DNA of 64,000 nt, taken from IMG/VR virus record IMGVR_UViG_3300032738_000111, positions 1-64,000 of that record. One strand, given 5' to 3'. The notes below the pieces were generated by a model that was not told the origin of the DNA, made no database searches, and saw nothing but the letters and a program-made list of their open reading frames with translations. The stretch comes from a virus. How positions within the stretch are numbered: position 1 is the first letter of the stretch; every line of letters begins with the position of its first letter. This document shows, piece by piece, positions 1 through 37,491 of this stretch. The translations under genes and the position numbers were made by a program.

Positions 1-696
1 GGCTAGCTGCGTGTCGTATACCCAAAACTCCTTCTTGCTTGCTTCGATGAGTCGCTTGCAACCGTGCATATCGCCGCCGATGATGATACTCACGCAGACA
101 ATATCGAGCAGCGGCACCATGTTCTTGATGTTCGGGTAGCAGACTGCGGTGCCGCAGCGTACCCCCTGGTCGTTGTTGCGATTCGTTAGCTCGCCAATGA
201 CTCTCTTCTCAGCACTAGTCATCGGTTTGCCGCGACCGGGTTCGTCAATGTTGTAGGCTACAATCTCCGGCCATTGGTCGGGATACTTGGACATGCTCCG
301 GGCGAGTTTAGTGAGGTAGGCCTTGCCAGCAAACTGTCCTTGTCCATGCCCTGGCAGCGGGTTCTTCTCAGCGGCCTTGACCTTCTCCCAGTCAGGTACG
401 AGTTGCGCGAATGTTGCCTCCCCGATGTTGGCAAACGCAAAGACAGGGAATTGCGGGTCAAGCATTTCCTCCTCAATAGCTATGTCTATCTGGTCGCGGA
501 ACTCCTCGACCGTGCCATACTCAATGACAAACGTGTTCATCCCGTACTTCTTCATCAGCTTGACGTGTGCTCGCCAGTTCTGCACGCCGCCGATATGCGA
601 ACGGTAGGCATACGTTCCGAAACCCGTCTGCGCCTGCGGAACCGTTGCGGCCAGTAGTACGAGTGCGGCTATGGCAAACGCCCTTAGCATTCTCAT
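1..696 (-). CDS. Secreted glycoside-hydrolase-like (TIM-barrel) protein, 3'-truncated by window edge
   Basis: Not in ORF track. Manual translation from ATG at 696 stays open to base 1: MRMLRAFAIAALVLLAATVPQAQTGFG (signal peptide)...LMKKYGMNTFV...IVAYNIDEPG...EFWVY. The GMNT and DEP motifs resemble GH-like barrels. Confidence 0.6.
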   Translation of the reverse strand, partial: MRMLRAFAIAALVLLAATVPQAQTGFGTYAYRSHIGGVQNWRAHVKLMKKYGMNTFVIEYGTVEEFRDQIDIAIEEEMLDPQFPVFAFANIGEATFAQLVPDWEKVKAAEKNPLPGHGQGQFAGKAYLTKLARSMSKYPDQWPEIVAYNIDEPGRGKPMTSAEKRVIGELTNRNNDQGVRCGTAVCYPNIKNMVPLLDIVCVSIIIGGDMHGCKRLIEASKKEFWVYDTQLA

Positions 697-698
697 AA

Positions 699-1637
699 TT
701 AGTCAGTCCCCTTTGTAGCTCTGTTTGCTGCGGCCTCTCGTGCTCGTTTCCGCCTTGCCCGTAAGCTCGTCTTGGTACGTGTTCGCATCATCTTGATATG
801 CGCGCGGGCCTCTGGTTCATACGGCTTACCCGGTATGCTACTGCTGTGCGTCTCCTCCGCGTAGAAGTCATCCAATTCGACCGGGCGCACCTTGGCAGAG
901 GTCAGGTAGCCGTGAGGTATCAGTAGTTGCGTATTGTTCGCGGGGAATACATCTCCATCGCTTGTCAGGTGTTCCCTCCCGTGGTCAACGCCCATCTGCC
1001 GCAGGCTACGCAAGATGTCCCCAGGTATATAGCCAGCCTCACGCAAGCTCCGTATCGAGTCATCGCCATTGTTGCTGTCGCTCTTGCTTATCTTGGCACC
1101 GGTAAGCTCATGGCGTATGGTCGGCATATACTGCTGGCATGGCGTCTTCCAACCTAGCGCGCAACAGAAGTAGTCGTAAAGCTCCGTCTGCGCTATCAAG
1201 TCGGCCCCTCTGTAGAATCCGCCAATCTCCATTGTGTGGTCATCAACAACGCTGGTGAATGTAAGCCAAGGATGGTATGGGTGTTCAATTGCCGGTGTTG
1301 CATCCATGTTGGTAACCGCGCGGTTTGTGCCCCAGAAGCGTGGCACCTGCGGGACTAGCCTCTGGTTCGCTTCCCAGTGTGCATCGGCGTTCCTCGTGCT
1401 CCACATCACATCGTCCGGCGACAACCCCAGCCAAGCCAAGTCCTCAATGTAGTGTTCAACAAGCGTGGCTATGGAGTGGCACCCCTTCGCGTATTGCTTC
1501 AAGTAGTACGGCGCGTCGTGCAGGTGCAAGATGAACTTGCCACCAGTGTGAAACGCCTTTGCCCAGTTGGCTTCGATGATCCGGATATGCCCGATGTGCA
1601 GGTCGTGATATATTGCGATGGAAAAGCGTGTGTTCAT
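699..1637 (-). CDS. Divergent glutamyl-tRNA synthetase / GluQ-like class I aaRS catalytic-domain protein (no anticodon-binding domain)
   Basis: MNTRF...LHIGHIR (HIGH), GGKFILHLHD, DLAWLGL, VVDDHTMEI..YRGADL, GAKISKS (KMSKS), SIRSLREAGY. Collinear with the GluRS Rossmann fold. Start placed at MNTRF. Confidence 0.8.
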   Translation of the reverse strand: MNTRFSIAIYHDLHIGHIRIIEANWAKAFHTGGKFILHLHDAPYYLKQYAKGCHSIATLVEHYIEDLAWLGLSPDDVMWSTRNADAHWEANQRLVPQVPRFWGTNRAVTNMDATPAIEHPYHPWLTFTSVVDDHTMEIGGFYRGADLIAQTELYDYFCCALGWKTPCQQYMPTIRHELTGAKISKSDSNNGDDSIRSLREAGYIPGDILRSLRQMGVDHGREHLTSDGDVFPANNTQLLIPHGYLTSAKVRPVELDDFYAEETHSSSIPGKPYEPEARAHIKMMRTRTKTSLRARRKRAREAAANRATKGTD

Positions 1638-1659: not shown

Positions 1660-1699
1660 GTTGAAGAAAGAGGGGCGGCAGCCGATAGACCGCCGCCCC
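1660..1699 (-). terminator. Probable intrinsic terminator/attenuator after prepilin gene
   Basis: GGGGCGGC...GCCGCCCC stem followed by TCTTTCTT on the minus strand. Confidence 0.55.
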
Positions 1700-1720: not shown

Positions 1721-2437
1721 CTACGGTTGGGCTTCGATGGCCGCCCACCAGTTCAGGCCCGACATCATTTCGCCCTGAGTCAACCCCTTCACATGGCCGT
1801 CGCGGAAACACATATTGTTCCTGTTGCCATGCGCGGCGTACTTTGCCTGATACGGTTGTGCTGGCGTGCCCTTCTCCGCCCCCTTAGGCTCGTAGAAGTA
1901 GGTGGCGTGGCCGTAGAAGTCGCAGCTATCAGGGGATACCATCAGCTCAGGCGGGATGGATATGTCTGCTACCATCATCGCGTTCGCCGCCGACAGCCCC
2001 ATGTGTTCATAGACATTGGTCGCATCTATATTCCACTGCGGGGTCTGGCCGGGCCATGAGCCGCCGCCAGCCCAGGGCAGCCCGTAGGTTGTCTTCTTGC
2101 CCTTGCCGTCGCATACGAATACGGGATTGATGTCGTTCGTCCACCTGTTCCTGATAGGCAACCCATAAGGTCCGAGTTTGTGCAGGCCATTCGAACCGGG
2201 GTAGTCGGTATCTCCAGCATTCCAGGTAAGCATCGGGCCGAACCCGTCATGGTCTCCGCAGTATTGGATAAGAGCCAGTCCAATCTGCTTGAGGTTGCTG
2301 ACACAGGTTGCCGTCTTTGCCTTCTCCCGCGCCTTTGCGAAGACGGGGAAGAGGATCGCCGCCAGCACCGCGATTATCGCGATGACTACCAGCAATTCAA
2401 TGAGCGTAAAGCCGAGTTTTGATTTGTAGGCCTTCAT
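1721..2437 (-). CDS. Prepilin-type N-terminal cleavage/methylation protein with DUF1559 and H-X9-DG C-terminal motif
   Basis: [47 protein letters not shown]; C-terminal [15 protein letters not shown]; GGAGAG RBS. Confidence 0.93.
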
Positions 2438-7296: not shown

Positions 7297-8559
7297 TTAG
7301 CTTGCGGCGGGTGTGGCGGTCGGTTCAAGTAGGTGCCCTAGTTCCGCAAGGGCTTCCTGCTCCCAACGGAGGCGGACTAGGGTGCCCTCGTTAGACGTTG
7401 TCCAGTAGTGACATTCATCGCAGAGGCAGATACCGTTTGCAACCTCGCTACGGAGTTCTGCGTATTTAGCGAATGCGGCCTTATGGTGGACGTGAAGGTC
7501 GTTACTGTGTTTGCTGAAGCCCTCGCCGCAACGCTGACAAGTATAGGCGTCGCGCTTGCGACAGTTGCGCTTGAACGATTTCCCTTCCTTGGTGGACTGC
7601 CAGTGATTTCTCTCGCCCGAACCCCCCTGCCAATTATGAACCTTATCACCGCGATAGTGCTTACTTCGATACTCAGCATAGCATCGCTTGTGGTTGCAAA
7701 ACTTTCTGTCCCCGTCACATAGAAATACCTCAAATTCCCTTCCGCAGTTTTCGCAGGTCAATTTTGGGTGTATTGTTTTGACAATCTGTTTCACGCGATT
7801 AGCACTATCCCACAACCCGCGATGCTTCGGGTTACAGAAGACATTGCCACTTTCAGGAATCTGGCCGGGGTGGCGCTTCACAGGCCCTTCGCACCAAGCG
7901 CATTCGAGCTGGAGTTTTCCGCCCTTCCAGCTATGGCTCTCCTTACCACTACTCGTACCCGGTAGGCGGCCCCGCTTTTCTATTTCGTGGGTACGGAGTG
8001 CAACATAGACATGGCTAAGGGAACAATCCAAGTCATTAGCAATGGCAACCATAGTCTGTGTAGCATAAGCTCGTTCAAGCCATTCCTTGTTATTTAGTTC
8101 GGGTATACGAAAGAGTTTTGGGCCGTGCTTTCGGTACTTTTCGCGGCGACCAATCTTAGCGCATTCAGAACGGCAATACTGGCGTGTGCCAGGCGCTGGC
8201 TTGCCACAGATAGGGCACGGCGTGGGTTCTGCAGGAATAACGCCCCTCTCTCTACGCTCTACCCCATTCGCCTTGAACGCGTTATAGAGCGTTGATGTAG
8301 CTATGTGTAGCTTTTGTGATACAGCGCCGAGGGACATCGGGCTCCGATAAAGACTAACGGCTTCCGCGAAAAGCTCTGGGTCTCTCCAGATGGCGCTCCT
8401 ATTCCGGCCTAGACGATTCATTATGCCGAACTGCTTGAGTGCGCGCCCAACGGTTGTAGTGCCGCAACCTAATTTAGAAGCGATGCTAGCTGCGGAATAT
8501 ATAGTATAGGCATCCTTGAGCCATTCTTTGTCATTCAGTTCAGGTATCCGAGAGGCCAT
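7297..8559 (-). CDS. Multidomain HNH endonuclease (repeated HTH and zinc-binding modules)
   Basis: Two RIPELNxKEWL-HTH modules, several CxxC...FC modules, HSWKGG/HNWQGG, C-terminal RDAYTCQRCG..LHVHH..NGICLCDECH. Confidence 0.85.
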   Translation of the reverse strand: MASRIPELNDKEWLKDAYTIYSAASIASKLGCGTTTVGRALKQFGIMNRLGRNRSAIWRDPELFAEAVSLYRSPMSLGAVSQKLHIATSTLYNAFKANGVERRERGVIPAEPTPCPICGKPAPGTRQYCRSECAKIGRREKYRKHGPKLFRIPELNNKEWLERAYATQTMVAIANDLDCSLSHVYVALRTHEIEKRGRLPGTSSGKESHSWKGGKLQLECAWCEGPVKRHPGQIPESGNVFCNPKHRGLWDSANRVKQIVKTIHPKLTCENCGREFEVFLCDGDRKFCNHKRCYAEYRSKHYRGDKVHNWQGGSGERNHWQSTKEGKSFKRNCRKRDAYTCQRCGEGFSKHSNDLHVHHKAAFAKYAELRSEVANGICLCDECHYWTTSNEGTLVRLRWEQEALAELGHLLEPTATPAAS

Positions 8560-11076: not shown

Positions 11077-12585
11077 TTACGGAGTGATGTTGTAACCGTG
11101 GCCGGTGGTTACATCCGTTGTACCATACATGTGAGTAAAAGACCCACGCCATACGGCCAGGATGTTAGAACGACCCTTCATCGGTTCGCGCACCAGCTCG
11201 ATAGTCAGGTTGCGCCGGTCAGCGAACAACCACGTCTGCTTGGGCACGACGAGCAGAGAGGTGGTGGTCAGAGTAGTCCCGTCGTACTTGCCGGTTGCGG
11301 CCAGGTTCGTCGGTATCCAGGCTGAGGAGACAATCGGAGAACCGAAGAAGTCCCCCACTTGGCCCGTCAGGACCGTGCGGTCGCCGAGTTCCGTGTTGCG
11401 CATGAACACGACCGTCTTGTTGGTGGTGTTGTCAACGAGCGTATAAGTCTTCGCCCGCAACTTGCTGGGGATTATGACGACTACATCCTCCAGCGGCTCC
11501 AGATACTCCTGGTTCATCGCGGTAAAGATGGACAGCAGGTTATCGCCGTTGTATGTGGCCAGGTCCTTGCTCGCCGTCGTGGTGACGTTGAGGGCATAGT
11601 CGCGCAAGCCATTCCAGGCCTTGCGGCGGTCGATGGTGCTAACCACATTCGTATCCATGTGCGTAGTTGCGTCATCACCTGAGATGACAGCCTCTTCGAT
11701 GGCCTCGCCCATAATCCGCGCGATGGTCTTGCGCAGTTCGGGCAGGAGGGGAACGATACTGTCTTCCTCTGCCTCTTCCGAGTAGGAAATCAGCGCGGCT
11801 AGCTTTTTTGCGGCTAGGCTACGGCTGGCCGTGGCCGGCGTAGTGCGCTCATACTCGGCGGGGGCGTCATCTTCTGCCTCCCCCTGCAGGTAGGCAGTGC
11901 CACCAGTAAGGCCGAACGGCAGCGTGAACGCATCCTTCGGCTGCTCGATACGCGGGAAGAGTGCCGTCACCACAAGCTGCTTGTGGATAGCTTCCACGAG
12001 CTCGGAGCTGTACTCAGTCGGGCACCATTCCAAGCCCTCAGCAGTGGTCGCGGTATCAATAGCCTTAGCCATGAGTGGATTGCTTTCGGTCAGTCGCCGG
12101 TAGTATTCCAACCGTGCAACTGGCACCGGATTGCCAATCTCGCCGCGAATAACGGACATGGTATAGAGGTCATCCCATACTGTCTTGAACGCCTTTTCGC
12201 TCTCATCCTGCGCAGGCTCGCGAATCGCCCGCTGAATCTCGGGCATTGACTTCATCCGGCTAACTCGGTCGTAGGCTATCCGGCTTTCGTCGGGGTCAAC
12301 ATCAGGACGCTGGAACTCGGCCAGCTTCTGCGACAGGTCGGCATTCTCTTTCCTGTCCTCACCAGCCTGTGTGGCGAACTCGGTTACTTGCTTCTCAAGG
12401 GCTTCGATGTCCTCGCGCGTCACACTGTCAGCGTCAACCTGGTCGGCGCGTTCTTTATCAGCAGCAGACGCCTTCATGATACTGGCGGCGTGCTCCTGCG
12501 CACCTGCGATTTCCTCGTCGGTCACTTCGGCCACAGGCTTATCAAGCGCCTCGGCAACCTTCTCTCTCAGTGCTTCGTTATCCAT
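11077..12585 (-). CDS. Major capsid protein (HK97 fold) with N-terminal scaffold (delta) region
   Basis: Coiled-coil N-terminus; GLEWCPTEYSSELVE; KKLAALISYSEEAEEDS; EEAVISGD; position after the protease. Confidence 0.9.
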   Translation of the reverse strand: MDNEALREKVAEALDKPVAEVTDEEIAGAQEHAASIMKASAADKERADQVDADSVTREDIEALEKQVTEFATQAGEDRKENADLSQKLAEFQRPDVDPDESRIAYDRVSRMKSMPEIQRAIREPAQDESEKAFKTVWDDLYTMSVIRGEIGNPVPVARLEYYRRLTESNPLMAKAIDTATTAEGLEWCPTEYSSELVEAIHKQLVVTALFPRIEQPKDAFTLPFGLTGGTAYLQGEAEDDAPAEYERTTPATASRSLAAKKLAALISYSEEAEEDSIVPLLPELRKTIARIMGEAIEEAVISGDDATTHMDTNVVSTIDRRKAWNGLRDYALNVTTTASKDLATYNGDNLLSIFTAMNQEYLEPLEDVVVIIPSKLRAKTYTLVDNTTNKTVVFMRNTELGDRTVLTGQVGDFFGSPIVSSAWIPTNLAATGKYDGTTLTTTSLLVVPKQTWLFADRRNLTIELVREPMKGRSNILAVWRGSFTHMYGTTDVTTGHGYNITP

Positions 12586-12657: not shown

Positions 12658-13875
12658 TTACGGCTTGCCAGCGAAATGCACTGGCCTCTTCTCGCGTATC
12701 TGCCAGCCGGATAGGTCTCCAACCTGCCCGTCCTCGCCTGCCGCTGTCACATCGGGCTGCAACAGTCGGTCAAGCTGCTCACGGGCTTCCGCGAGGCGTG
12801 CTATGTAATCGGCAGATAGGTCTCTGCCTTCCTTCCGCCAATGGGTAGTGATATTGCCTACTGATATGAGGCCGGTGCGGACTGCCTCAATGTCATCCTC
12901 GAAGCGTTGTTCCTCTGATAGCTCCTCTTCACCGGCCTTCCATATCGCTGCGCCGTCGTCCGCCTTCTCGGGGAATGGCTTGTCAAACTTCGCGTAATAC
13001 TTCTTCGCGTGGGAAAGACAACGGGCTTTGTCAGCATCAGGGATGTCAACCCCTCCGCGCGCCCCGTGCAAAGCACCAACCGCAGCCGCTATGCCACGCC
13101 AGACTGCCGATAGCTCACCGTCAACGATGTCGGCAAAGCCCAGCTTGTACGCGCCGAGGGCTTGCTTGTCGGCGCTGTCATACCAGAGGAAGGCCTTCCG
13201 ATACAACGTCCAGTCCATGTCTTCGCCATTAGCCCAGTTGCGGACACGCTTGCTGGCTCCGCGCTTATCCCAAGGGCGTTCCTCGTCTGCCAACGGGAGG
13301 TCGCCGAACGGGACTGCGCCGAGTTCAATGTCAGGGGCGATGGTCTGCTGCTCCATGTCCAGGCCGAGCGACTTCGCAAAGGCCATAGTGGCACCAGGAT
13401 TAGCAGGTATCGAAACTAGAGCTGTCTCCAGCCAGTCGATTCGCCTCCAGACCTTGATGCCGTCGTCGCGGTCCTCGAAATCGGGTGTTCCGTCTGGATG
13501 CGGACCGTAGAGGGATGAATATGGGCTAAACCCTATGGAGAGGCAACGAATCACCTTGTCGCGAACTAGATTGAGCGCCTTTCCTGCTTGTTCTGTTGCA
13601 TCTGTCAGATATACTTGGATACTTGTTTCCCGCTCAGTAACCCGCGCGTCGCGTGCATAGCCAATTGGTTCGTATGTATCATGTTGCCACGTCATTAGGG
13701 GGTTTGCCATGTAACGGTCAACAGTCTCTGCCATTGCCTCGCTAGCTACTATTTCGCGAGTGCGGTCCTCTTGCGGAGTGCTGCAAGTAGCCCAGAATGT
13801 CCTACTCTCCTCGTCAAATTCCTTGACCTCCATCGGCATGACATTGATACGGTCAAAGGCGTTCATGTTAGACAT
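12658..13875 (-). CDS. HK97-type prohead protease fused to an additional phage domain
   Basis: WQHD..EPIG, LSIGF, ETALVSIPANPGA; C-terminal YRKAFLWYD...YKLGFADIVDG...GARGGVDIP domain. Confidence 0.88.
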   Translation of the reverse strand: MSNMNAFDRINVMPMEVKEFDEESRTFWATCSTPQEDRTREIVASEAMAETVDRYMANPLMTWQHDTYEPIGYARDARVTERETSIQVYLTDATEQAGKALNLVRDKVIRCLSIGFSPYSSLYGPHPDGTPDFEDRDDGIKVWRRIDWLETALVSIPANPGATMAFAKSLGLDMEQQTIAPDIELGAVPFGDLPLADEERPWDKRGASKRVRNWANGEDMDWTLYRKAFLWYDSADKQALGAYKLGFADIVDGELSAVWRGIAAAVGALHGARGGVDIPDADKARCLSHAKKYYAKFDKPFPEKADDGAAIWKAGEEELSEEQRFEDDIEAVRTGLISVGNITTHWRKEGRDLSADYIARLAEAREQLDRLLQPDVTAAGEDGQVGDLSGWQIREKRPVHFAGKP

Positions 13876-15527: not shown

Positions 15528-17627
15528 CTACACTACCGGCAATAATACACAACGACAGTTGATAATGTTCCCCGCGCTACCTTTCGGGTCGCCGGGATGG
15601 TCGAGTGCCTGCCCTGATACTATGAACGGCTTGTCTATCAATACCGCCTGCCCATTAGCAGCAACGTGGTTATACCTATCTCCCGGCTTGAGTCCGCGCA
15701 CCTTCTCATCAAGCGCGGTCAGCCACTCCTTCTTCTCTATGTCGTTCTGCCGATAGCCCTCGAGCGCACCCTTGTTGTTCGCCCCGACCGTCTCAGTCCG
15801 TGCTACCCGCTCGGCCTTATAGCGTTCGTACCCAGGCTCCATGTCGCGAATGCGGCTTGCCATTTCCGGTACGCCGACGCCTTCGTTGACCGCCTCCTGC
15901 AGCACCACGCGCAGGTCAGTGAACATAGTCTCTGGTAGCGTGGTAATCTTTAGCCGCTTCTCCCCAAGCCACTGCATTACCTCGGGTCTGCCTATGTCCC
16001 AAGCCCCGCCGCCGATGTCGGCCAAGGCACGCTGCCCACCTAGCTCCAGCCCCTCTTCAACGTGCGGCATGATCCCCGCTACCCAGCGCTCGGCCTGCTC
16101 ATCGGTGAATATCTCGCGCAGGATACTGTCCGGCGTCGGCACCGTAGCCTTGAGGTGCTTGTCGTCCTCCTCGGCAAGCGCGGCCAGTACTTCGTCCAGT
16201 GCCTCGATATAGAGCGCGGCCATCGTCTTGTGGAAGCGTTCCTCTAGCAGGCGCAGGCTATTGTCAAAAGCCCTCCAGTATTCGACATGCTGCGCGCTAC
16301 CAAACTCCCCGAACCTGCCCTTGTTCTCCGGCGGCGATTGCTTGATATGCCAGGGGGTTGCGGCAGCCTTAGGCGGTGTCGGCTCCTGCTGCGTTGCCTC
16401 CGGTTGCGGCACCGCACCTAGCGGCACCATGTTCATCGGCTGCCACAGCTTCTCGGCGTCGCCACCAAACGGTTCGCGGCCCGTCTCGGCACGGGCTTCA
16501 TCGGGGGTCAGATAAGGCACCCCTACCGCTGGCTGCAACCGTTCCGCCTGCTCATTCCTGCCCTCCTGCAAAGCCTCCACGTCAGAGAAGTCGGGCCTCA
16601 GCTCAAGGTCATTGCCATAACGCGGCACCAACTTCTCATTCAGCCTGCCGAAGGTGTACTTGACCTCAGGCACAATACAGGACTTCCAGTAAATCTCTTC
16701 TTCCTCGTCAGCGCTGGCATAGCTGGCGTTATCAAGGATACCAACGCGGATAGGCGGCACATGGAAGGCGGCGATGATTTCCTCGCGCGTCATCTTGGCT
16801 AGCTCGATGTACTGCCCGTCACGGGAGTTCTTGCCTAGCTCCTGGTATTTGAGATTCTTGCCAGCGATAAACGTCTTGCCCGCCGCTGCATCGCCGCCAT
16901 AAGTGGACTCCCACGCCGCCCGCATTTGCTCCAGCAGCTCTGGCTTTACCTCCCCTTCCGCTGAGAGCATCCCCGACGGGACTGCGCCGCGCTTGAGGAA
17001 CTCATAATTGAACTTGCGCACCCTGTTGTCCAGGTTGATGGACGTTTCAATGGGCTGCACTGCGGACTGCCCGTACAGGTCATTGAGGGGATTCCAGCGG
17101 CGGAAGTGGATTACCTGATGCGGGTCGTAAGGTATTTCGTTCCGCTTGTCGCCAGGCGTTGGGTTATAGACGTACCTCTGGATGGCTTCCTTAGTCGCGA
17201 CAATCCTCACGCGGTCAGGTCGCAGTGGGAAGATGGCGTCAACCCTGCTGCTTGGTGTAGCGCCGCCTACCAATAGCCAGTAGGAATCGCCAGCCAACCT
17301 GCGATAGCCGACCGTCGCCCACATCAATCCCGCCCAGTCATCATCTGCGTTGACGCGGGCAAGCAGGTCAAGCAGCGGGTGTTCCTCTACCGGCTCGCCC
17401 TTCCTGAAGAGGCCATACGGTACCGCCGCGCAGTCATTGCAGATGGCTTCGATGCAAGCAGCTACCCAGACATTGAGCTGGTAGGCCTGAAGGTAATTCT
17501 CTTGGTCTATGGCGGGGCCAGAGTCAGTGATTTTCCAGAGGCTGGCGGCGATAAAATCGGATAGGCTATCAGCAGCCTTAGCGGTGCCACCGAGGAATCG
17601 GCGCAGCCAGAACCAGTCGCGGGCCAT
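15528..17627 (-). CDS. Portal protein (HK97 family) fused to MuF/SPP1 gp7-like head morphogenesis domain
   Basis: PLRPDRV, VIHFR..NP.NDLYGQS, FHVPP..VG; C-terminal AERVARTE, KKEWLTALD, GNIINCRC. Confidence 0.92.
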   Translation of the reverse strand: MARDWFWLRRFLGGTAKAADSLSDFIAASLWKITDSGPAIDQENYLQAYQLNVWVAACIEAICNDCAAVPYGLFRKGEPVEEHPLLDLLARVNADDDWAGLMWATVGYRRLAGDSYWLLVGGATPSSRVDAIFPLRPDRVRIVATKEAIQRYVYNPTPGDKRNEIPYDPHQVIHFRRWNPLNDLYGQSAVQPIETSINLDNRVRKFNYEFLKRGAVPSGMLSAEGEVKPELLEQMRAAWESTYGGDAAAGKTFIAGKNLKYQELGKNSRDGQYIELAKMTREEIIAAFHVPPIRVGILDNASYASADEEEEIYWKSCIVPEVKYTFGRLNEKLVPRYGNDLELRPDFSDVEALQEGRNEQAERLQPAVGVPYLTPDEARAETGREPFGGDAEKLWQPMNMVPLGAVPQPEATQQEPTPPKAAATPWHIKQSPPENKGRFGEFGSAQHVEYWRAFDNSLRLLEERFHKTMAALYIEALDEVLAALAEEDDKHLKATVPTPDSILREIFTDEQAERWVAGIMPHVEEGLELGGQRALADIGGGAWDIGRPEVMQWLGEKRLKITTLPETMFTDLRVVLQEAVNEGVGVPEMASRIRDMEPGYERYKAERVARTETVGANNKGALEGYRQNDIEKKEWLTALDEKVRGLKPGDRYNHVAANGQAVLIDKPFIVSGQALDHPGDPKGSAGNIINCRCVLLPVV

Positions 17628-17636
17628 AGGGTAACC

Positions 17637-18989
17637 TCAGATTACGTCAAACCAAAGCTCAGTGAACTCGCCCTGTGCCAACTGTGCGAATGCGCCTGAC
17701 ATGGCATCCACCTGGTCGTCATGCGCGCCGAATGGAAATAGCGCCACCTCGTCAAGGAAGTCACTTATCCACGGCCCGCTCACCAGCTTGACATTGCCAT
17801 GCCACGCCTGGCTAGACACGGGATTGGCACGGACCTCTTTGCTACCAGTGCTGCGGACGCCGCAAAAGTTATACCCGTCGAGGATACGGCGGGTGTAGTG
17901 GTCTATCGTATTGACGCCACTACTGCCAGGCTCTTGCTCCATCGCAATTTCTACATCAACCCCATCGCGCTCAGCGGTCTGGCGGATAAGCGCTTCGACT
18001 TTGCCCGGCGCTGCTTGAGTACGTTTTACATCACAGATGTAGTAAGTCGCAGCATCGGTACGGTCTAGGTGACGCCCCATGAGTACGCCAGCAGTATAGT
18101 CAGGGTCCTTGCCGGGCTTGGGCTCCGTTGCCGCCAAGTCCCAGAAGCGTACTCGACGCATTTCCACAGGCGCGACATCCACTGGCGCAAACCAATCGCG
18201 CTGAAACTTGTTTCCTGTCGCCTCAATATCCCAGTCGCCCTTCTTCAACTGCTCGCGGGTAACAGGGTCAAGTTCGTCCAGCGCCTTGTTATACTCCTCA
18301 ACATCAAGGTGGGGGTTGTCCTCAAGGCAGGCTGGTATGAATACGCGCTCTTGGCTACGCCCCTCGACAATGAACCGTTGTTTTACCCATTGATGTCCTT
18401 GGTCGCCTGGGTTGCTTGCTGAGCGCATACGCAACGGTACTGCTGCGCCCTCAAGTCTCCGCAGGCGAGAGAATAGGTAGCGATATTGGCTCTCACTAAA
18501 CTGCGTCAATTCGTCGAAAGCAATATACTGGAAGGCCGCTGACTGATACCGAAACTTGTCCTTCTCGGCATCCAAGTAAGCAAAGCTCAAAGTAGCCCCC
18601 GAGGGGAATATCCAGGTCTTAGCCTTGTCGCTCCAGCGTGCGTCGGTTGGCCCCAGCCACTCCTGCGCCCTGTCCATCAGGGCCTCAGGCAGTATCAGGT
18701 CAGTATAGGTGCGCCGAAAGATGATGGCGGCATAGCTTGGAATATCAACGTACTGCAATGCGGCCATGAGTAAGGCGTCAGACTTGCCACCGCCTGCCGC
18801 GCCGCCGTAGAAAGCCTCGCGGCAAGTTAGCCAGAGGAATGCTTGCTGCTTAGGTGTCGGGGTGTGCGGGCAGTACTCACTCAGCCGCGGCGTCAGGTGC
18901 GCCTTCAGCTCCGGCCTCGACTGCACCAGATTCGACCAGTATTCGGAGGACTTCTCCAAGGTGTCCACTGCTTGTGTCGATGTTGCCAC
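17637..18989 (-). CDS. terL: Terminase large subunit
   Basis: YGGAAGGGKS (Walker A), IAFDE (Walker B), WDLAAT and HDDQVDA nuclease motifs. Confidence 0.95.
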   Translation of the reverse strand: MATSTQAVDTLEKSSEYWSNLVQSRPELKAHLTPRLSEYCPHTPTPKQQAFLWLTCREAFYGGAAGGGKSDALLMAALQYVDIPSYAAIIFRRTYTDLILPEALMDRAQEWLGPTDARWSDKAKTWIFPSGATLSFAYLDAEKDKFRYQSAAFQYIAFDELTQFSESQYRYLFSRLRRLEGAAVPLRMRSASNPGDQGHQWVKQRFIVEGRSQERVFIPACLEDNPHLDVEEYNKALDELDPVTREQLKKGDWDIEATGNKFQRDWFAPVDVAPVEMRRVRFWDLAATEPKPGKDPDYTAGVLMGRHLDRTDAATYYICDVKRTQAAPGKVEALIRQTAERDGVDVEIAMEQEPGSSGVNTIDHYTRRILDGYNFCGVRSTGSKEVRANPVSSQAWHGNVKLVSGPWISDFLDEVALFPFGAHDDQVDAMSGAFAQLAQGEFTELWFDVI

Positions 18990-20380: not shown

Positions 20381-20455
20381 TGGTGAGGGCAATTGGATTT
20401 GAACCAATGACCGGCCGCTTATGAGGCGGCTGCTCTTCCGCTAAGCTATGCCCTC
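20381..20455 (-). tRNA. tRNA with CAT anticodon (likely tRNA-Ile2, otherwise elongator Met), encoded CCA
   Basis: GAGGGCA-TA-GCTTAGCGGAAGAGC-A-GCCGC-CTCATAA-GCGGC-CGGTC-ATTGG-TTCAAAT-CCAAT-TGCCCTC-ACCA full cloverleaf. Confidence 0.92.
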
Positions 20456-23110: not shown

Positions 23111-23282
23111 GCTTCTCCCCCCACTCCTCACACGCCTTCCCGTCTGTAATCTCGCGGCCCTTCCTGCAAGCATACCAGCACGTAGTCCCCTCGTCAATAC
23201 TGCCCGGCTTGTCGCCGATGAAGTCCCGCGCGCCTGAGGTAACGAATGAGTGCTTGCAGGTGTAGCAGGTTTGGTTGGTCAT
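23103..23282 (-). CDS. Small Cys-rich protein
   Basis: Manual translation MTNQTCYTCKH...CRKG...CEEW, 59 aa; ATGA overlap with the MTase. Confidence 0.5.
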   Translation of the reverse strand: MTNQTCYTCKHSFVTSGARDFIGDKPGSIDEGTTCWYACRKGREITDGKACEEWGEKHG

Positions 23283-24376
23283 GCCTCACTACTCCCTTCG
23301 TCTGCCTGCATAATCCTTTGCCCTATCCAATACACCACATTCACCGTCACTGCATTTCCGAGTCCTCGGTATCGGGCACTGTCCATCCCACGAGGAAGCC
23401 CTGGAGCTTCTCGCACTCTGTCGGCGTCAACCTGCGGACAGACAATACCCTCGAATTGCTTGCCGCTTCGGCTTCCCGTGAGTGAACCTGCCCTTCCGCT
23501 GGTTCGGAGTTCTCCGCGTTGGTTTGCGTGGAGGCCGCAGACGAATTGATAACTGTGGCTGGCTCCGCTTCGTAAGGCTCTTGCCCTTCCGCTTCCAGCA
23601 AGTTGCCCGCTGATGTTTTCATGCCAAGCAATGAGTCCGGTGTACTCCTGTTTAGCAGGCCAACCTCGCCTTGCCCATTTAGGAGTAACTGTGTGGCTCC
23701 GTTCGGAGATGGTGTCTTCGCTATCGGCGATGAATGTTCGCTGTTGCTCCTTCCCACTGTCGCCTCCAGTGCGGCTATCAAGGCAGTGGGCAACGCCCTC
23801 CCCCGTTTTCCTGCTCGCCTCAGGATGCCAGCCGCCGCCTTCGCGCTCAAATAGAATCGCTCCGGCACGTCGCCATCCAGAATCTCCCTGAGCGAACACA
23901 CCAAAGACTCGTCGCCTCCGCTGGGCCACTCCGAAGAACTGTGAGTCCAGCACCCGCCAGGCTCCGAAATACCCGATTTCGGCAAGGGCGGCAAGGACTG
24001 CGCGGAAGTCATCGCCTCCGTTGCTGCTGAGTAGTCCGGGAACATTCTCCCAAACAAGGTAGCGAGGCTTTGCTTCAGCCACCACTCGCACCAACTCGAA
24101 GAACAGGCCGCTGCGCGCTCCAGTGATTCCCGCACGGTTGCCGGCCACGGAAAGGTCTTGGCACGGAAACCATCCGCTGATGATGCCAATGTCTCTGTAT
24201 TCTCGCCCGTCAAGCTCTTCGATGTTCTCATGTATTAGCACCTCCGGCCAGTGGGTTTTCAATACCCGTCGGCAGAATTTATCACACTCGCACATGGCAA
24301 CGGTCTCAATTCCCGCAAGCTCGAAGCCGAGGTCGAAGCCGCCTATGCCAGTGAAGAGTGATAGGTGGGTCATCAT
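23279..24376 (-). CDS. dcm: C5-cytosine DNA methyltransferase, alpha polypeptide
   Basis: LFTGIGG (I), FPCQDLS (IV), ENVPG (VI), QRRRRVF (VIII), RYRGLGNAV (X); motif IX absent from this frame. Confidence 0.9.
   Translation of the reverse strand: MMTHLSLFTGIGGFDLGFELAGIETVAMCECDKFCRRVLKTHWPEVLIHENIEELDGREYRDIGIISGWFPCQDLSVAGNRAGITGARSGLFFELVRVVAEAKPRYLVWENVPGLLSSNGGDDFRAVLAALAEIGYFGAWRVLDSQFFGVAQRRRRVFGVFAQGDSGWRRAGAILFEREGGGWHPEASRKTGEGVAHCLDSRTGGDSGKEQQRTFIADSEDTISERSHTVTPKWARRGWPAKQEYTGLIAWHENISGQLAGSGRARALRSGASHSYQFVCGLHANQRGELRTSGRAGSLTGSRSGKQFEGIVCPQVDADRVREAPGLPRGMDSARYRGLGNAVTVNVVYWIGQRIMQADEGSSEA
23347..24231 (-). CDS. Overlapping-frame beta polypeptide of the C5 methyltransferase (motif IX)
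   Basis: Nested 294 aa ORF with SLREILD..VPERFYLS..AAAGILRRA and VRRLTPTECEKLQGF. Confidence 0.7.
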   Translation of the reverse strand: MRTSKSLTGENTETLASSADGFRAKTFPWPATVRESLERAAACSSSWCEWWLKQSLATLFGRMFPDYSAATEAMTSAQSLPPLPKSGISEPGGCWTHSSSEWPSGGDESLVCSLREILDGDVPERFYLSAKAAAGILRRAGKRGRALPTALIAALEATVGRSNSEHSSPIAKTPSPNGATQLLLNGQGEVGLLNRSTPDSLLGMKTSAGNLLEAEGQEPYEAEPATVINSSAASTQTNAENSEPAEGQVHSREAEAASNSRVLSVRRLTPTECEKLQGFLVGWTVPDTEDSEMQ

Positions 24377-26543: not shown

Positions 26544-27566
26544 CTATATCAAATTGAGCTGCGTTGGATTCTCTGCTTCCCTTATCCGCTCTTCGCTCCG
26601 CTGGCACCAATGCTCCGATAGTTCAATGCCGATAAACTCTCGCCCATACTTCACCGCTGCCTCGCCAGTCGCGCCCGAACCACAGAAGCAGTCCAGCACC
26701 GTATCACCTTCCCTGCTGCTGGCGGTGACTATGTGCTCCAGCATGGCAAGCGGCTTCTCGCAAGGATGTTTGCCTGCGTAGGGCTTGACTGTCGGGAAAT
26801 CCCACACGTCGGTGTACGGCACGTCGGCGGTGACGGAGAACGGGCGGCGGAGGTCTTCGTATTCGGTGCGGAGGTCTTCGTATTCGCGGGTCAGGTAGCC
26901 GCCACTGTTGCGAGAATTGAAGAGGTCGCGAAGCCACTGGTAGTTTTCAGCGGTCGGGAGCGTCCACTGCACACGGGAAAACCAATGCCCTGCCATGCCT
27001 GTGACTGTTCGGCTCCCTGTTACCTTTTGGTATTCCTCTGCGACGCGACGGGTTGACCAATCAGCCCGCGCCTTCTCCCCGTCCAGATAAGCCCTCAGCG
27101 GCTCGAACACGAACCCGCGCAACTCGTCGCACTTGGCGGCATATCCCGCTTCGCCCTTCGCCATATTGTCCGCGCCGTAGTGCTCAGCAAAGATGATTTC
27201 CTCCCACGGCGATAGGTAGGAGCGCACCATTTCCTTGTCGGTCTTGTTGTGCCAGCCAGCTTCCTTCACCCAGCGGATACGGTTCAACACCTCGAAGAAC
27301 TCCGCAGTCTTGCACTCCACCCGCGCCGCCATCTTTGGGCTTGCGAACACGTACAGGCTACCGTTCGGCTTGAGTATCCGCTGCCATTCCGCGCATAGCA
27401 GGCCGAACCATTCAATGAACCCTTCGGCGCTATCCCATTGCCTGTCCCAAGGTTCGTTCTTGACGCGGTAGTAGGGAGGGTCAGTGCAGATTAGACTGAC
27501 GCTATTGTCGGGAAGCGTTGGCATGACCTGCAAGCAATCGCCCTCGATTATCTGCCAGCTACTCAT
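26544..27566 (-). CDS. N6-adenine/N4-cytosine DNA methyltransferase (beta class)
   Basis: TDPPY, HPCEKP, VLDCFCGSG. Confidence 0.92.
   Translation of the reverse strand: MSSWQIIEGDCLQVMPTLPDNSVSLICTDPPYYRVKNEPWDRQWDSAEGFIEWFGLLCAEWQRILKPNGSLYVFASPKMAARVECKTAEFFEVLNRIRWVKEAGWHNKTDKEMVRSYLSPWEEIIFAEHYGADNMAKGEAGYAAKCDELRGFVFEPLRAYLDGEKARADWSTRRVAEEYQKVTGSRTVTGMAGHWFSRVQWTLPTAENYQWLRDLFNSRNSGGYLTREYEDLRTEYEDLRRPFSVTADVPYTDVWDFPTVKPYAGKHPCEKPLAMLEHIVTASSREGDTVLDCFCGSGATGEAAVKYGREFIGIELSEHWCQRSEERIREAENPTQLNLI
26847..26886. repeat. 21-bp-period tandem repeat (2 copies) encoding EYEDLR
   Basis: gcggaggtcttcgtattcg twice. Confidence 0.8.
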
Positions 27567-29324: not shown

Positions 29325-29940
29325 TCTCGTCTCCTTCGTCAGTAATCTGCGCATTGCCCTTTGCTTCTCTCGCCCTCGTCGCATCCACTATTGCTATCCA
29401 TTCGGCCTCTAGGTCCGCCATGACCGCCCCGCACTTCGGGCATACCCGCTCCGTCGTCGGCCTATCGCAACACTCAATCGGCCAGCCCGGCGTTACCACC
29501 ACGCCCGTACAGGTCTGGAGTATCGGAGCGCACAGCCGCATAACCTCCAACCCCGCCTGCGCATACTCGACACTCAATGTCCTGTCGCAAAACGCCGCCA
29601 TCAACTCGCGCATCATCAGGCCCATGCCGAACTCCACTACGTCACCGCTGCGACTAGCCCGCACCTCCAGCGCATCATAGTCCCGCGAGCTCGTCCAGTA
29701 GCATTTGTGGCAGAGGTGCAGGCAGCCCTCGCCGTCCGCCTTGGGCACCTCGTATTTCCAGAGCACTTGTTGGCAGTAGCAGCAGTTCTCGTTGCGGAGG
29801 TTGTGGAGCGTCCGCTGGTAGGTCTCAAGGTCTGCTTCACCTGCGGCGTAGGCAAGCGTCACGTCGCGGACTGCGGTCACGACCTCGGAGTCATCTGCCG
29901 GTGCGAGGTCGCGGATGACATCCTGCATATTGTCAGTCAT
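29308..29940 (-). CDS. Hypothetical zinc-binding protein
   Basis: Several CxxC pairs. Confidence 0.6.
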   Translation of the reverse strand: MTDNMQDVIRDLAPADDSEVVTAVRDVTLAYAAGEADLETYQRTLHNLRNENCCYCQQVLWKYEVPKADGEGCLHLCHKCYWTSSRDYDALEVRASRSGDVVEFGMGLMMRELMAAFCDRTLSVEYAQAGLEVMRLCAPILQTCTGVVVTPGWPIECCDRPTTERVCPKCGAVMADLEAEWIAIVDATRAREAKGNAQITDEGDENDESG

Positions 29941-30721
29941 TGGACTGGTTCCCTTCGCCCATCGCAAGCTGCACCGGGGCGGGCGTGGTCTCCAATGCCT
30001 CCGGTATGCGAAGCTGCGCTATCTCTTTTCCCAACCGCTTCGTTGCCAACTCGCAGTATTCCTCGCTGATTTCTATGCCGACTCCCTTTCTGCCGAGGCG
30101 GTAGCAGGCAACGAGGGTTGTGCCCGAACCGAGGAAGGGGTCGATGACTGAGCCGCCAGGCTTGCAAAGTGTTTCTACCAGCCAACCGAATAAAGGCAGT
30201 GGCTTCTCTGTTGGGTGACGGTCTGCCTTGTTTCCCACCAACGGCGTCTCGAATACGTTATGCGTTACTCCGCCACCGCCCCACCAGAGTACAGGCCCAT
30301 CACTTTGCCGTCCGAATACAGCAGCCTCAACAGCACTACAGAAGTTCTTGCGCGGCTTCGGAGGTGGGTTCGCCTTGCGCCAGTACACGAGTTGCAGTGG
30401 GTTTAGCCCAGCCTTCTGAAAGATCGTCCACATAGTGCCGACCTGCTTGCCATCAGTCCAGACTACCGCCGCCCCACCAGGAGCCACAAGGCGCAGCGCG
30501 AGTTCTATAGCTTCACTTGGTAACTCAGTATCCCAATCAATGTCAAACTCGACGAATGCACCAGCTACCTTCCAAACCTTCGCTGCGTCCTCTTCGTTTG
30601 TGCCATACGGCGGGTCAGTCAGGCACAGGTCGAACCCCCGCTCCAGTTGCGGCATGATTTCCAAGCAATCACCCAAGTAAATCTCTAAGCCGAACTCTTC
30701 GCTGCGCCAGTACGGTTTCAT
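29933..30721 (-). CDS. N4-C/N6-A DNA methyltransferase (beta class)
   Basis: TDPPYG, HPTEKP, DPFLGSGTT. Confidence 0.92.
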   Translation of the reverse strand: MKPYWRSEEFGLEIYLGDCLEIMPQLERGFDLCLTDPPYGTNEEDAAKVWKVAGAFVEFDIDWDTELPSEAIELALRLVAPGGAAVVWTDGKQVGTMWTIFQKAGLNPLQLVYWRKANPPPKPRKNFCSAVEAAVFGRQSDGPVLWWGGGGVTHNVFETPLVGNKADRHPTEKPLPLFGWLVETLCKPGGSVIDPFLGSGTTLVACYRLGRKGVGIEISEEYCELATKRLGKEIAQLRIPEALETTPAPVQLAMGEGNQSND

Positions 30722-30915
30722 CGCCTCTCCTCCGCACACTCCGGGCAGAAATACTCGTGGTCGCCCCTGCAATCTATCTCAGATACCCAACCGTGCTCTT
30801 CGAGCCAGGCTTTGATGACGGGCGAGGTCGCGTCCTCAATGTGAGTGTTTTCCCATGCGATACCACAGTCATCACACTCTATGCGGAGCTGGCCGTTATG
30901 TGGCGTTAGGGTCAT
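30718..30915 (-). CDS. Small zinc-ribbon protein, paralogue family D
   Basis: IECDDC...HGWV...YFCPECA. Confidence 0.6.
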   Translation of the reverse strand: MTLTPHNGQLRIECDDCGIAWENTHIEDATSPVIKAWLEEHGWVSEIDCRGDHEYFCPECAEERR

Positions 30916-35384: not shown

Positions 35385-36698
35385 TCAATCCCCTTTCAGT
35401 GTTGCGCGACAGGATGTAAACAATTCCGATGACTGAGAAGCTAGTGTCTCCCCTTGCGTTTGAGGTTCCTGCTTCATCAGACCTAACAACTGTATCGGCC
35501 CTCCACAGGCTTCGGATTCGGCGGGACACCCGCCTATCTGTTGCAAACCTCTGTTCAATATGTTTCGAGCCGCGTTTACGTCACGGCCAATGCTTAGTCC
35601 GCACTCAGGACAGTCATGGACTCTGTCCCACAGGCGCTTCGGTACAATCGCCCAGCACTGCGAACAGGCCTGGGTAGTCCCTCGCGCAGGCACTCTCACT
35701 AACTGCGCACCTAGTTCTTCGCACTTATACTCAAGCATCTCGACGAGCTTGCTCCAGCCCGCGTCGGCAATGCTCTTGTGCAGGCCCTTCTCCCGTTGCC
35801 CTCCGCCAGCTTCCTTCTGCAATAGGTCGCCAGCTATTCTGTCCTCTACGGCTATCAGGTCATACTGCTCGACGAGTTGACGGGACAGCGTGTGCAGAAA
35901 GGCCTCCCGCGCATTCGCCACATCATGCTCGGCACGTGCTACTTTCAGCGCCGCCTTTTTCCGGTTTGCCGAACCCTTCTTTGCCCTTGCCAGCCGACGC
36001 GCCAGTTTCGTCCGCTTCTTCTGCGCATTCCGATAGTATTGCGGTGGCTTCACTTCTTCGCCTTCCGAGGTGGTAATCAACGACGAGCAGCCTACGTCGA
36101 TGCCAATACAACGCAACGGCTCCACTATGGGCGGTGCCGGTATCCCGTTGTCGCCTGCCAAGGCAACATACCATTTCCCGGCAACGCGCCGGACAGAGAG
36201 GGCCTTCACGTCGAGGTTGGGCGGCACTTTTGGACGGGCGTTGATCAAGCCAATTTTAGGCACATTGACCTTGCCGTCGCGCCACTGCTCCACATCGCCC
36301 GCGTCGCGCGATATGAGATTCGGGGTATCGCGCTTTGGCCTTGGATACCCAGGCCGCTCGCCGTTCTTACAGCGCCGGAAGAATGCCTGGAAAGCAACGT
36401 CGAGGTTCTTCAGTACGCCTCGCGCAAAGACACTCGGCACAGCCCTCAATTCAGGATATTGTTTGCGGGACTTCGCTAACTGTGCGCATTGATCAATGTA
36501 GGATATTGACCACTTCTTCTTGATGGCGGAGGCGTCTTCATTTGGCTTCTCATCCAACTCCCGCTTGCAACCCTCCCACGCCTGCTCGCGGTCAAGCAGT
36601 GAGTAGTTCCAGAGGCGGCGGCAGATTTCCATCCATGCCAACAACTGAGCTTCCTGCGCCTTCGTCGGATATAGGCGATACTTCTGGGCGCGTATCAT
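35385..36698 (-). CDS. tnpB: TnpB RNA-guided endonuclease (IS200/IS605 family), no TnpA
   Basis: KYRLYPT, GYPRPK, GIDVG (RuvC-I), IAVED (RuvC-II), CSQC..CPEC zinc finger, RDVNAARNI (RuvC-III). Confidence 0.93.
   Translation of the reverse strand: MIRAQKYRLYPTKAQEAQLLAWMEICRRLWNYSLLDREQAWEGCKRELDEKPNEDASAIKKKWSISYIDQCAQLAKSRKQYPELRAVPSVFARGVLKNLDVAFQAFFRRCKNGERPGYPRPKRDTPNLISRDAGDVEQWRDGKVNVPKIGLINARPKVPPNLDVKALSVRRVAGKWYVALAGDNGIPAPPIVEPLRCIGIDVGCSSLITTSEGEEVKPPQYYRNAQKKRTKLARRLARAKKGSANRKKAALKVARAEHDVANAREAFLHTLSRQLVEQYDLIAVEDRIAGDLLQKEAGGGQREKGLHKSIADAGWSKLVEMLEYKCEELGAQLVRVPARGTTQACSQCWAIVPKRLWDRVHDCPECGLSIGRDVNAARNILNRGLQQIGGCPAESEACGGPIQLLGLMKQEPQTQGETLASQSSELFTSCRATLKGD
35424..35540 (-). 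ncRNA. Putative TnpB omega-RNA 3' scaffold and guide
   Basis: GCCTGTGGAG...GAAGCAGGAA...GGGGAGACAC. The loop GTGTC of hairpin GGCGG/CCGCC is complementary to the terminal GACAC. Confidence 0.6.
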
Positions 36699-36857
36699 CA
36701 CAAGCTCCAGAATCAGATAGCCCGCCCACTTTCGATTGCGCTTCGTCCGCAGAGACGCAGTGCCTTCGATAGATGGACGGGCTATAATGAGTCGCACAAA
36801 AAGCACTGCTGACTCTGCGGATACTCTGATTATAGAGGTTGCTGGCACTGGAGTCAA
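36699..36857 (-). promoter_or_regulatory. Near-consensus promoter plus structured leader upstream of tnpB
   Basis: TTGACT-17-TATAAT; TCCGCAGAG/CTCTGCGGA, GCAGTGC/GCACTGC and ATAGCCCGTCCAT/GTGGGCGGGCTAT pairings. Confidence 0.75.
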
Positions 36858-36864
36858 GGCCTTT

Positions 36865-37491
36865 CTACGGGAGTTTGTTCTGGCGGTATGCTTCTTCGAT
36901 GACTTGCTCGTGCCGTGAATGCGCTTGCCATATCCGACCGTGCTTCTGCGTCCGGTGCATGTATCCAATGGAGCGGCCTGGCAGCCAGTCGTGATAGCGG
37001 CGAGGGTAAAACACCCTCTTCGCTACAGCGTATCCGCGCAAGCCCCACTCGTAGTAACCATGCCACTCTTTGCAGTGAGCGCGAATGTTCGCCTTCGGGT
37101 CTGTGCTGCCACCTGGACGATCCGTAGGCCCCGCGCATCCATTCGTCGCCCTGTAGTGACATCGCAGGCCGATACCTGCCGCGCAATACGCCAATCCCAT
37201 TTGCCAGTCTGCGCCCATGCCGAGTCGCTCGTATTCACTCACAAAGAATTCGCAGAATGGCAGAAATCCGCTGCTTGGATAAAGTTCCCGTACAATCAGC
37301 CGACACTTAGCGACGCGCAACGCATGGACTGAGACCATCGGCCCCGCCTCGCTCACCCTCTGCGCCCTCGGCTCCGGCATGGCGGGTAGTTCCTGCGGCT
37401 CCGCCTGCGTGTGCAGGCATACAAGCCAGACTATTGCGGCGGCGACGAGGACCCAGAACAAGCCTCTGTACGGGTTGCGGTCAGGTATCAT
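36865..37491 (-). CDS. Membrane-anchored protein, possible degenerate lytic-transglycosylase fold
   Basis: N-terminal TM; DPKANIRA resembles the SLT motif, but no catalytic ES is visible. Confidence 0.45.
   Translation of the reverse strand: MIPDRNPYRGLFWVLVAAAIVWLVCLHTQAEPQELPAMPEPRAQRVSEAGPMVSVHALRVAKCRLIVRELYPSSGFLPFCEFFVSEYERLGMGADWQMGLAYCAAGIGLRCHYRATNGCAGPTDRPGGSTDPKANIRAHCKEWHGYYEWGLRGYAVAKRVFYPRRYHDWLPGRSIGYMHRTQKHGRIWQAHSRHEQVIEEAYRQNKLP

Follow-up and report, generated by a model that had tools for sequence, protein, structure and literature searches.

A phage-encoded lineage of small GluRS-type proteins related to GluQRS and found beside glycosidase-like genes

Among the synthetase paralogues that abandoned tRNA charging, GluQRS, MshC and the cyclodipeptide synthases each revealed new chemistry. 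GluRS, GlnRS and ArgRS normally need tRNA for amino-acid activation. GluQRS activates glutamate without tRNA and esterifies a cis-diol, the product being tRNA-Asp glutamylated at queuosine 34. MshC, the Cys:GlcN-Ins ligase derived from CysRS, is a class I paralogue whose adenylate acylates a sugar-type acceptor, not tRNA. In the solved complexes, the residue at the position of Tt GluRS Glu41 and GlnRS Asp66 is the ligand of the substrate α-amino group. The Arg5/Asp195/Arg205 network of GluRS reads the carboxylate of the Glu side chain, and the Tyr187 position, where the tyrosine has been called non-critical, is Met or Leu in many archaeal GluRS (Nureki et al. 2010, PMC2978374).

Here we describe P0001, a phage protein whose family resembles GluQRS (YadB) in being a paralogue of the GluRS catalytic domain without an anticodon domain, and which has RGxDL and the Arg/Asp/Arg triad in common with it. 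The P0001 insertion is 50 residues shorter than in GluQRS and carries no zinc cysteines, RIED has become DD in the phage family and HD in the branch that contains P0001 (the query branch, five representatives), PSP has become IAI, and the gene sits among phage and carbohydrate genes, where GluQRS is a chromosomal gene linked to dksA. Bacterial GluRS (PF00749; PDB 7k86, 5h4v, 1j09) provides the top matches and shares HIGH, KMSKS and the Arg5/Asp195/Arg205 triad, but P0001 is without the anticodon domain, has 60-85 fewer insertion residues and has its α-amino ligand and PSP loop replaced. MshC is a functional analogue only, since its parent is CysRS, its sequence relation is limited to the class I fold and it is not phage-borne. 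Viral clusters of the ESM Atlas and phrog_35649 belong to the same family as P0001, from which the query branch differs at positions 6-11, 38, 40 and 129.

The gene, its product and the substrate pocket

The window analysed here is bases 1-64000 of IMG/VR record IMGVR_UViG_3300032738_000111, and "genome" denotes the whole record (Table 1). The record derives from a freshwater metagenome, is 78,240 bp long with a 141-bp direct terminal repeat and has an IMG/VR completeness of 100%. Its phage origin is confirmed by the terminal repeat together with genes for the large terminase, portal, protease and major head protein.

Table 1. Positions of the features discussed. Window and genome coordinates refer to the record named above; L numbers denote IMG/VR loci.
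Feature	Location	Strand	Basis or remark
Mini GluRS-like gene (P0001)	window 699..1637	-	translation, PF00749, AF2, Foldseek, dN/dS
Rebuilt substrate loop RFSIAIYHD (canonical RFAPSPTGx)	window 1602..1628	-	R4 retained; P7, T/S8 and G11 swapped
HIGH signature (H14-I-G-H17)	window 1587..1598	-	translation
HLHD replacing RIED/RFDD; His40 at α-amino ligand position	window 1515..1526	-	translation, alignment
Side-chain pocket segment: Leu125 (Tyr187 equivalent), Ser129 (Asn191 equivalent), Asp133 (Asp195 equivalent), Arg143 (Arg205 equivalent)	window 1209..1265	-	
KISKS (KMSKS signature)	window 1080..1094	-	S-K pair at least 90% conserved in phage family
C-terminal basic helix, residues 274-309	window 711..818	-	limited to query branch and a few clade-A members
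DUF1559 protein with prepilin-type N-methylation motif, upstream neighbour	window 1721..2437	-	syntenic in L001, L002, L003, L031
Terminator-like hairpin, 12 G+C-rich pairs and T-run, between DUF1559 gene and P0001	window 1672..1699	-	
Signal-peptide protein, ~340 aa, downstream neighbour	window 1..696, continuing to genome 77773-78099	-	
269-aa protein	genome 76339-77148 (= L005 12339-13148)	-	M20/M42 deacylase/aminopeptidase-like, weak (PDB 4q7a, E 6e-5)
397-aa cytoplasmic TIM barrel	genome 75107-76327	-	profile match to PslG, E 5e-5
Major head protein	window 11077-12585		
Protease	window 12658-13875		
Portal	window 15528-17627		
Large terminase	window 17637-18989		
HNH endonuclease, 420 aa, N-terminal DNA-binding region	window 7297-8559	-	phrog_8446, E 4e-35
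Single tRNA, CAT anticodon (Met, or Ile2 if anticodon modified)	window 20381-20455	-	
Three DNA methyltransferases (one C5-cytosine, two N6/N4 type)	window 23279-24376, 26544-27566, 29933-30772	-	
Transposase-like gene	window 35385-36968	-	phrog_506, E 2e-92
1080-aa protein with C-terminal BNR/Asp-box (sialidase-like) repeats	window 59731-62973	-	
Tandem paralogous 284-aa genes, N-termini near-identical	genome 68264-69118, 69208-70062	-	one homologue in L002/L003
Second PslG-like barrel copy	L002 4655-5605, L003 11927-12877		both candidate catalytic glutamates lost (WGE->WGS, TEWG->TGFG)
GH42-like barrels on both sides of a mini GluRS-like gene	L017 6978-9760		340-kb IMG/VR contig, huge phage; 4-6 nt spacers

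The P0001 reading frame runs from an ATG at 1637, with a GGGGG Shine-Dalgarno-like run on its 5′ side, to a TAA stop at 699-701, and its product has 312 residues. An alternative GTG start at 1811 was rejected because it would overlap the upstream gene and the terminator hairpin, and because all homologues begin MNTRF. The product matches PF00749, the catalytic domain of GluRS and GlnRS with which the first-pass annotation of this DNA had proposed a comparison, above the Pfam cut-off (E 9.1e-19), and a Pfam search gave no match to the anticodon-binding domain PF19269. Scores against the NCBIfam GluRS and GluQRS models are only 10-62 bits where the cut-offs are 250-650. For example, P0001 falls below the cut-off of the GluRS model TIGR00464 (61.7 bits against 289.95) and of the GluQRS model TIGR03838 (38 bits against 276.7), and the best of the five GluQRS models (TIGR03838, NF004312-15) reaches 57.3 bits against 250. 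The top PDB sequence matches are bacterial GluRS proteins, aligned over residues 3-100 and 121-228 as separate blocks, with the acceptor-binding insertion skipped. An AlphaFold2 model built on a 138-sequence alignment has a pLDDT of 91 and a pTM of 0.88, and its top Foldseek matches are GluRS catalytic domains at probability 1.0. With this fold, H14-I-G-H17 and K182-I-S-K-S186, the protein falls in the class I aaRS, or HIGH-KMSKS Rossmann, superfamily. Comparison with the orthologue in L001 gives a dN/dS of 0.15, at a dS close to saturation. P0001 is a folded protein under purifying selection, paralogous to the catalytic (Rossmann) core of GluRS and devoid of tRNA-binding domains.

Between the equivalents of G71 and R143, the insertion spans 71 residues in P0001 and 70-72 in its phage family, without any Cys, compared with 121 residues and 3 Cys in E. 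coli GluQ and 131-158 residues in GluRS, so that the acceptor-binding insertion of the family is shorter by 50-85 residues than in GluQ and GluRS. The lysine of KMSKS is followed by 127 residues in P0001, by about 52 in clade B of the family (defined below) and by about 225 (223-231) in GluRS. From these segment lengths and the missing cysteines it follows that the P0001 family has neither an anticodon domain nor a zinc site and lacks most of the insertion that binds the acceptor stem. It is the smallest GluRS-type core among those compared here. The first-pass annotation was right that the insertion had shrunk, but its figure of about 25 residues is better replaced by the span given above. 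It was also right that the anticodon domain is gone, although what it called a short basic tail is a region of 127 residues that the AF2 model folds into short strands and helices, including a long basic one that spans 274-309. This tail is missing from clade B, whose members have a median length of 245 aa and a median pI of 5.6-5.7, and from much of clade A.

The same annotation had reported intact HIGH and KISKS motifs, the altered sequences RFSIAIYHD and HLHD, and the retention of both pocket arginines, and the translation and alignment bear it out on each of these points (the arginines are R4 and R143). Its statement that GluQ keeps the canonical residues is likewise correct, as E. coli GluQ has RFAPSPSG and RIED. 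The tyrosine of the PTY motif has indeed been lost, with Leu125 in its place, but the loss is not diagnostic because it is family-wide and present in many archaeal GluRS. Most members of the phage family have Leu at this position. The residues R4, D133 and R143, corresponding to Arg5, Asp195 and Arg205, are conserved throughout the family, and the fourth His of HxGH has been restored family-wide, unlike in GluRS. At the Asn191 position most of the family has Lys or Arg; the query branch has Ser, like bacterial GluRS.

What sets the query branch apart is the site that would hold the α-amino group. The ligand position is Asp in 57 of the 62 other members of clade A and in 60 of the 76 members of clade B, and solely in the five representatives of the query branch is it His (four proteins) or Tyr (one, P0028). 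The same branch alone replaces P7 with I, L or V, T8 with A or V, G11 with His and the residue at position 38 with His. All 35 canonical sequences compared combine D or E as the α-amino ligand with an A-P-S-P loop, where P0001 has His40 and S-I-A-I. Other family members retain Asp-Asp and a loop of P-T-P type, and these may well still use an α-amino acid. The substitutions are kept across the five query-branch representatives, which are 46-81% identical. Because the changes are retained in five representatives down to 46% identity, and because dN/dS is 0.15, the altered pocket is, as judged from these sequences, a coordinated and selected remodelling and not the product of decay. The scenario of a decaying pseudogene, which had been raised as a way in which the first-pass reading could fail, is contradicted by the same two observations.

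A phage family beside GluQRS

Relatives of P0001 are numerous. A word-indexed search found four, three of them 70-81% identical to P0001 and the fourth 32%. When 1.84 billion cluster representatives were searched with a profile, 51 scored below 1e-30 and 465 below 1e-10, and the first true GluRS ranked behind approximately 130 short proteins of 210-340 aa with end-to-end matches. Identity across the family is 25-35%, and P0001 displays all of its common traits: a length of 210-340 aa, membership of a single clade, a short insertion, HxGH, RGxDL and SK motifs, and a GH-A TIM-barrel gene nearby.

All family members examined are metagenomic, and the sole label given to any of them is the generic "glutamyl/glutaminyl-tRNA synthetase". 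In ESM Atlas clusters of short PF00749 proteins (231-298 aa), 71-100% of the members are viral, and the automatic label there is [quoted passage not shown], with no assigned function. We retrieved 29 IMG/VR loci that carry members of the family. PHROGs yielded one weak match, phrog_35649, of unknown function; a search of cultured phages in INPHARED gave nothing beyond partial 30-35% matches to unannotated records; and BFVD gave weak structural matches (E 0.03-0.3) to cytidylyltransferase-like phage proteins. A narrow, pattern-based scan of genome contigs found as cellular matches only the GluQ-like genes of two Rhodospirillales MAGs. The family has been found almost exclusively on phage and metagenomic contigs, and we found no description of it in the literature.

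In a FastTree phylogeny of 178 rows, 143 short proteins form one clade with a support of 99 on a branch of 0.88. This clade has two halves, namely clade A (67 rows, including P0001) and clade B (76 rows, with proteins of about 245 aa). A second tree, computed with IQ-TREE under LG+C20 PMSF, added E. coli GluQ and GluRS, six GluQRS sequences that exceed the TIGR03838 cut-off, a pair of GluQ-like genes from alpha-proteobacteria and the GluRS of 41 Pseudomonadota genomes. Homologues retrieved with E. coli GluQ were all close enterobacterial sequences, so the diversity of GluQRS was sampled by a genome search. The phage family is again a clade (SH-aLRT 99, branch 0.97), the seven GluQRS sequences form their own clade (99), as do the GluQ-like genes (98), and these three lineages group apart from GluRS with an SH-aLRT of 94. 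A topology constrained to put the query branch inside GluQRS is 101 lnL worse and is rejected by the AU test (p 7e-75). Since the clades are separate and the forced placement is rejected, the sequences place the phage family as a sister lineage of GluQRS and not as a member of it, on long branches and with GluQRS sampled from Pseudomonadota only. Placement within the ordinary GluQ clade, together with activation of Glu, had been named beforehand as the outcome that would overturn the first-pass reading, and both the tree and the AU test put the gene outside it. The suggestion of a class I paralogue with a new function in a phage holds insofar as the enzyme is phage-encoded and of GluRS/GluQ type, but P0001 is not unique, since its branch is only one among those of a large phage family.

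Gene neighbourhoods

On the minus strand of this genome, the gene order is the DUF1559 gene, the hairpin, P0001, the gene for the ~340-aa secreted protein, that for the 269-aa protein and that for the 397-aa barrel. A pseudopilin is an unusual cargo for a phage, and DUF1559 pilins often lie close to genes of the family. The ATG of the ~340-aa gene is 2 nt after the P0001 stop, and this gene crosses the 141-bp terminal repeat, so that the linear record splits it. Its product has a weak profile match to beta-N-acetylgalactosaminidases (PDB 8k2j, E 5e-5) and is syntenic in L001, L002, L003 and L028. The 269-aa protein has no Pfam match and is shared by this phage and L001 alone; it could be the step of the P0001 pathway that takes off an acyl or aminoacyl group. 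The TIM barrel is located two genes downstream of P0001 and is not adjacent to it. Its Atlas model aligns over 300-326 residues with barrels of GH42, GH39 and GH5 type (TM 0.64-0.70), and by features its nearest clusters come from Planctomycetota and Verrucomicrobiota. These relatives and the DUF1559 gene give a lead, and only a lead, to a host of Planctomycetota or Verrucomicrobiota type. A predicted complex of P0001 with its own barrel scored 0.25, where the mark is 0.32, which counts neither for nor against a contact of the two proteins.

Neighbourhoods of homologues, which the first-pass annotation had proposed to inspect, were drawn from the IMG/VR loci, with ORF clustering over all loci, and they contain GH-A barrels and sugar genes. 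The PslG/GH39-like barrel family of the present genome recurs, in one to three copies, beside the enzyme in L002/L003, L004 and L028. In clade B, a different, GH42-like barrel family (GH42 Pfam E down to 1e-9; PDB 6lvw, E 3e-11) occurs within 0-4 kb in 10 non-redundant loci and is often start/stop-coupled to the enzyme gene; in L017 such barrels flank it. No sequence homology between the two barrel families was detected with hhalign, so the same kind of partner has apparently been recruited twice. With the same method, no recognisable barrel of either type was found among the neighbours in L020 and L031. The second PslG-like copy in L002 and L003 is possibly a non-catalytic binding paralogue. 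Other nearby genes encode glycosyltransferases of the GT2, GT4 and TOD1 types, an NDP-sugar 4,6-dehydratase, sugar ABC binding proteins and permeases, and melibiase. Members of the family adjoin GH-A TIM-barrel glycosidase-like genes, usually inside wider sugar gene clusters. Neighbourhood in the moron regions of phages can mirror shared regulation, not a shared pathway.

Of 19 loci, 18 have no tRNA gene close to the enzyme, and a tRNA for Glu, Asp or Gln lies close to it in none of the 19. A distant relative, L004, carries tRNA-Tyr, tRNA-Met and tRNA-Trp.

The remainder of the phage genome offers several observations of its own. The three DNA methyltransferases probably serve restriction evasion, and a PD-(D/E)XK nuclease is also encoded. 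The BNR/Asp-box protein is likely a tail fibre or receptor-binding protein for glycan recognition, and the tandem 284-aa genes are probably duplicates of a tail tube or other structural protein. TGT and QueC are absent from this genome, which rules out for this phage a link to deazaguanine or queuosine modification of DNA or tRNA. GT1 and GT2 are absent as well, so that a link to virion glycosylation through glycosyltransferases was rejected for this genome; several clade-B loci do contain glycosyltransferases.

What the enzyme may do

By analogy with known paralogues, we propose that P0001 may be a tRNA-independent adenylating ligase that joins a Glu-like acid to a carbohydrate-type acceptor, a reading to which we assign a probability of roughly 45%. 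The enzyme would convert ATP and a Glu-like dicarboxylic acid to an acyl-adenylate without tRNA, as in GluQRS, and the acyl group would then be moved to a hydroxyl or amine of an acceptor other than tRNA. The likeliest acceptor would be a sugar or glycan that the co-encoded GH42/GH39-like barrel acts on, in chemistry that would be akin to the cis-diol ester of GluQRS or to the transfer of an amino acid onto an amino sugar by MshC. Activation without tRNA is proposed by analogy with GluQRS alone. A Glu-like acid would fit because the Arg/Asp/Arg triad is kept while the α-amino ligand has changed, and a carbohydrate-type acceptor is favored by the gene context and by the analogies with GluQRS and MshC. 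The carbohydrate gene context, on which the first-pass annotation did not touch, is the strongest clue to the acceptor.

In the query branch, the acid activated is probably not plain L-glutamate, because the ligand of the α-ammonium group is now His or Tyr and the P-T/S-P-x-G loop has become hydrophobic with an added Tyr-His. The pocket may instead accept a Glu-shaped acid with a different α substituent (for example hydroxy, oxo or N-substituted) and no free ammonium group. The first-pass reading, of a substrate other than glutamate and an acceptor other than a normal tRNA, is supported in part and extended.

Several of the observations above count against a ligase of this kind: the distance of two genes between P0001 and its own barrel, the loci L020 and L031 with no barrel detected, the lack of detectable sequence homology between the two barrel families, the alternative of shared regulation in moron regions, and the absence of GT1 and GT2 from this genome. 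The basic C-terminal helix of the query branch also speaks against it, as it would suit the binding of nucleic acid. The main rival, which we hold to be unlikely, is worded around that helix: P0001 would be a GluQRS-like modifier that esterifies Glu or an analogue to a modified base or ribose of host tRNA, other RNA or DNA, with helix 274-309 binding the target. The sister relationship with GluQRS, the RGxDL motif common to both and the retained Glu-reading triad are consistent with such an activity. Nevertheless, the tail is missing from clade B and much of clade A, the insertion and zinc site that GluQRS retains are gone, neither tRNA genes alongside nor queuosine/deazaguanine genes in the phage's own genome accompany the enzyme, and the conserved neighbours are sugar enzymes.

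Alternatively, P0001 might transfer a nucleotide, or use ATP in some other way that involves no acyl-adenylate. For example, AMP could be transferred to a sugar phosphate if the HxGH/SK site were reused as in cytidylyltransferases. The family-wide restoration of the fourth HxGH His, which GluRS does not have, and the weak BFVD matches to cytidylyltransferase-like phage proteins (E 0.03-0.3) point in this direction, and the sugar-related context would suit it. Sequence and fold are much closer to GluRS, however, and the amino-acid-pocket triad, which a pure nucleotidyltransferase would not need, is conserved family-wide, so we regard this alternative as quite improbable.

Phages often encode decoys, and all parts for tRNA recognition are absent from P0001, as might be expected of a non-catalytic binder that soaks up a host factor or a GluRS-targeting kinase, or that senses ATP or glutamate. 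Such a role is hard to reconcile with catalytic signatures and pocket residues that are conserved over deep divergence (25-35% identity), and PADLOC gave no match for P0001 or its neighbours, nor was there any other defence-related match; we consider it very improbable. Least credible of all is that P0001, in spite of its PF00749 match, is a minimal genuine glutamyl-tRNA synthetase for translation, given a score far below the GluRS cut-off (61.7 against 289.95 bits), the missing anticodon domain, the shortened insertion and a His as α-amino ligand, or else a decaying remnant, given intact ORFs and a dN/dS of 0.15.

Returning to the proposed adenylating ligase, a more specific version can be formulated for P0001 itself, although we think it rather doubtful. 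The enzyme might adenylate a non-amino acid shaped like Glu, such as a sugar diacid or a dicarboxylate with a 2-hydroxy or 2-oxo group, and, together with a GH42/GH39-like barrel, might link this acid by an ester or amide bond to a glycan of the host surface or the virion. If true, an aaRS core would here have given rise to a way of acylating glycans that was not known before.

As a sister lineage of GluQRS, the P0001 family is deep and abundant and is essentially restricted to phages. If its members acylate sugars or glycans, they would add an aaRS-derived step to the ways in which phages manipulate carbohydrates. Moreover, the query branch would exemplify how the α-amino site of a class I enzyme has been rebuilt in nature for another acid.
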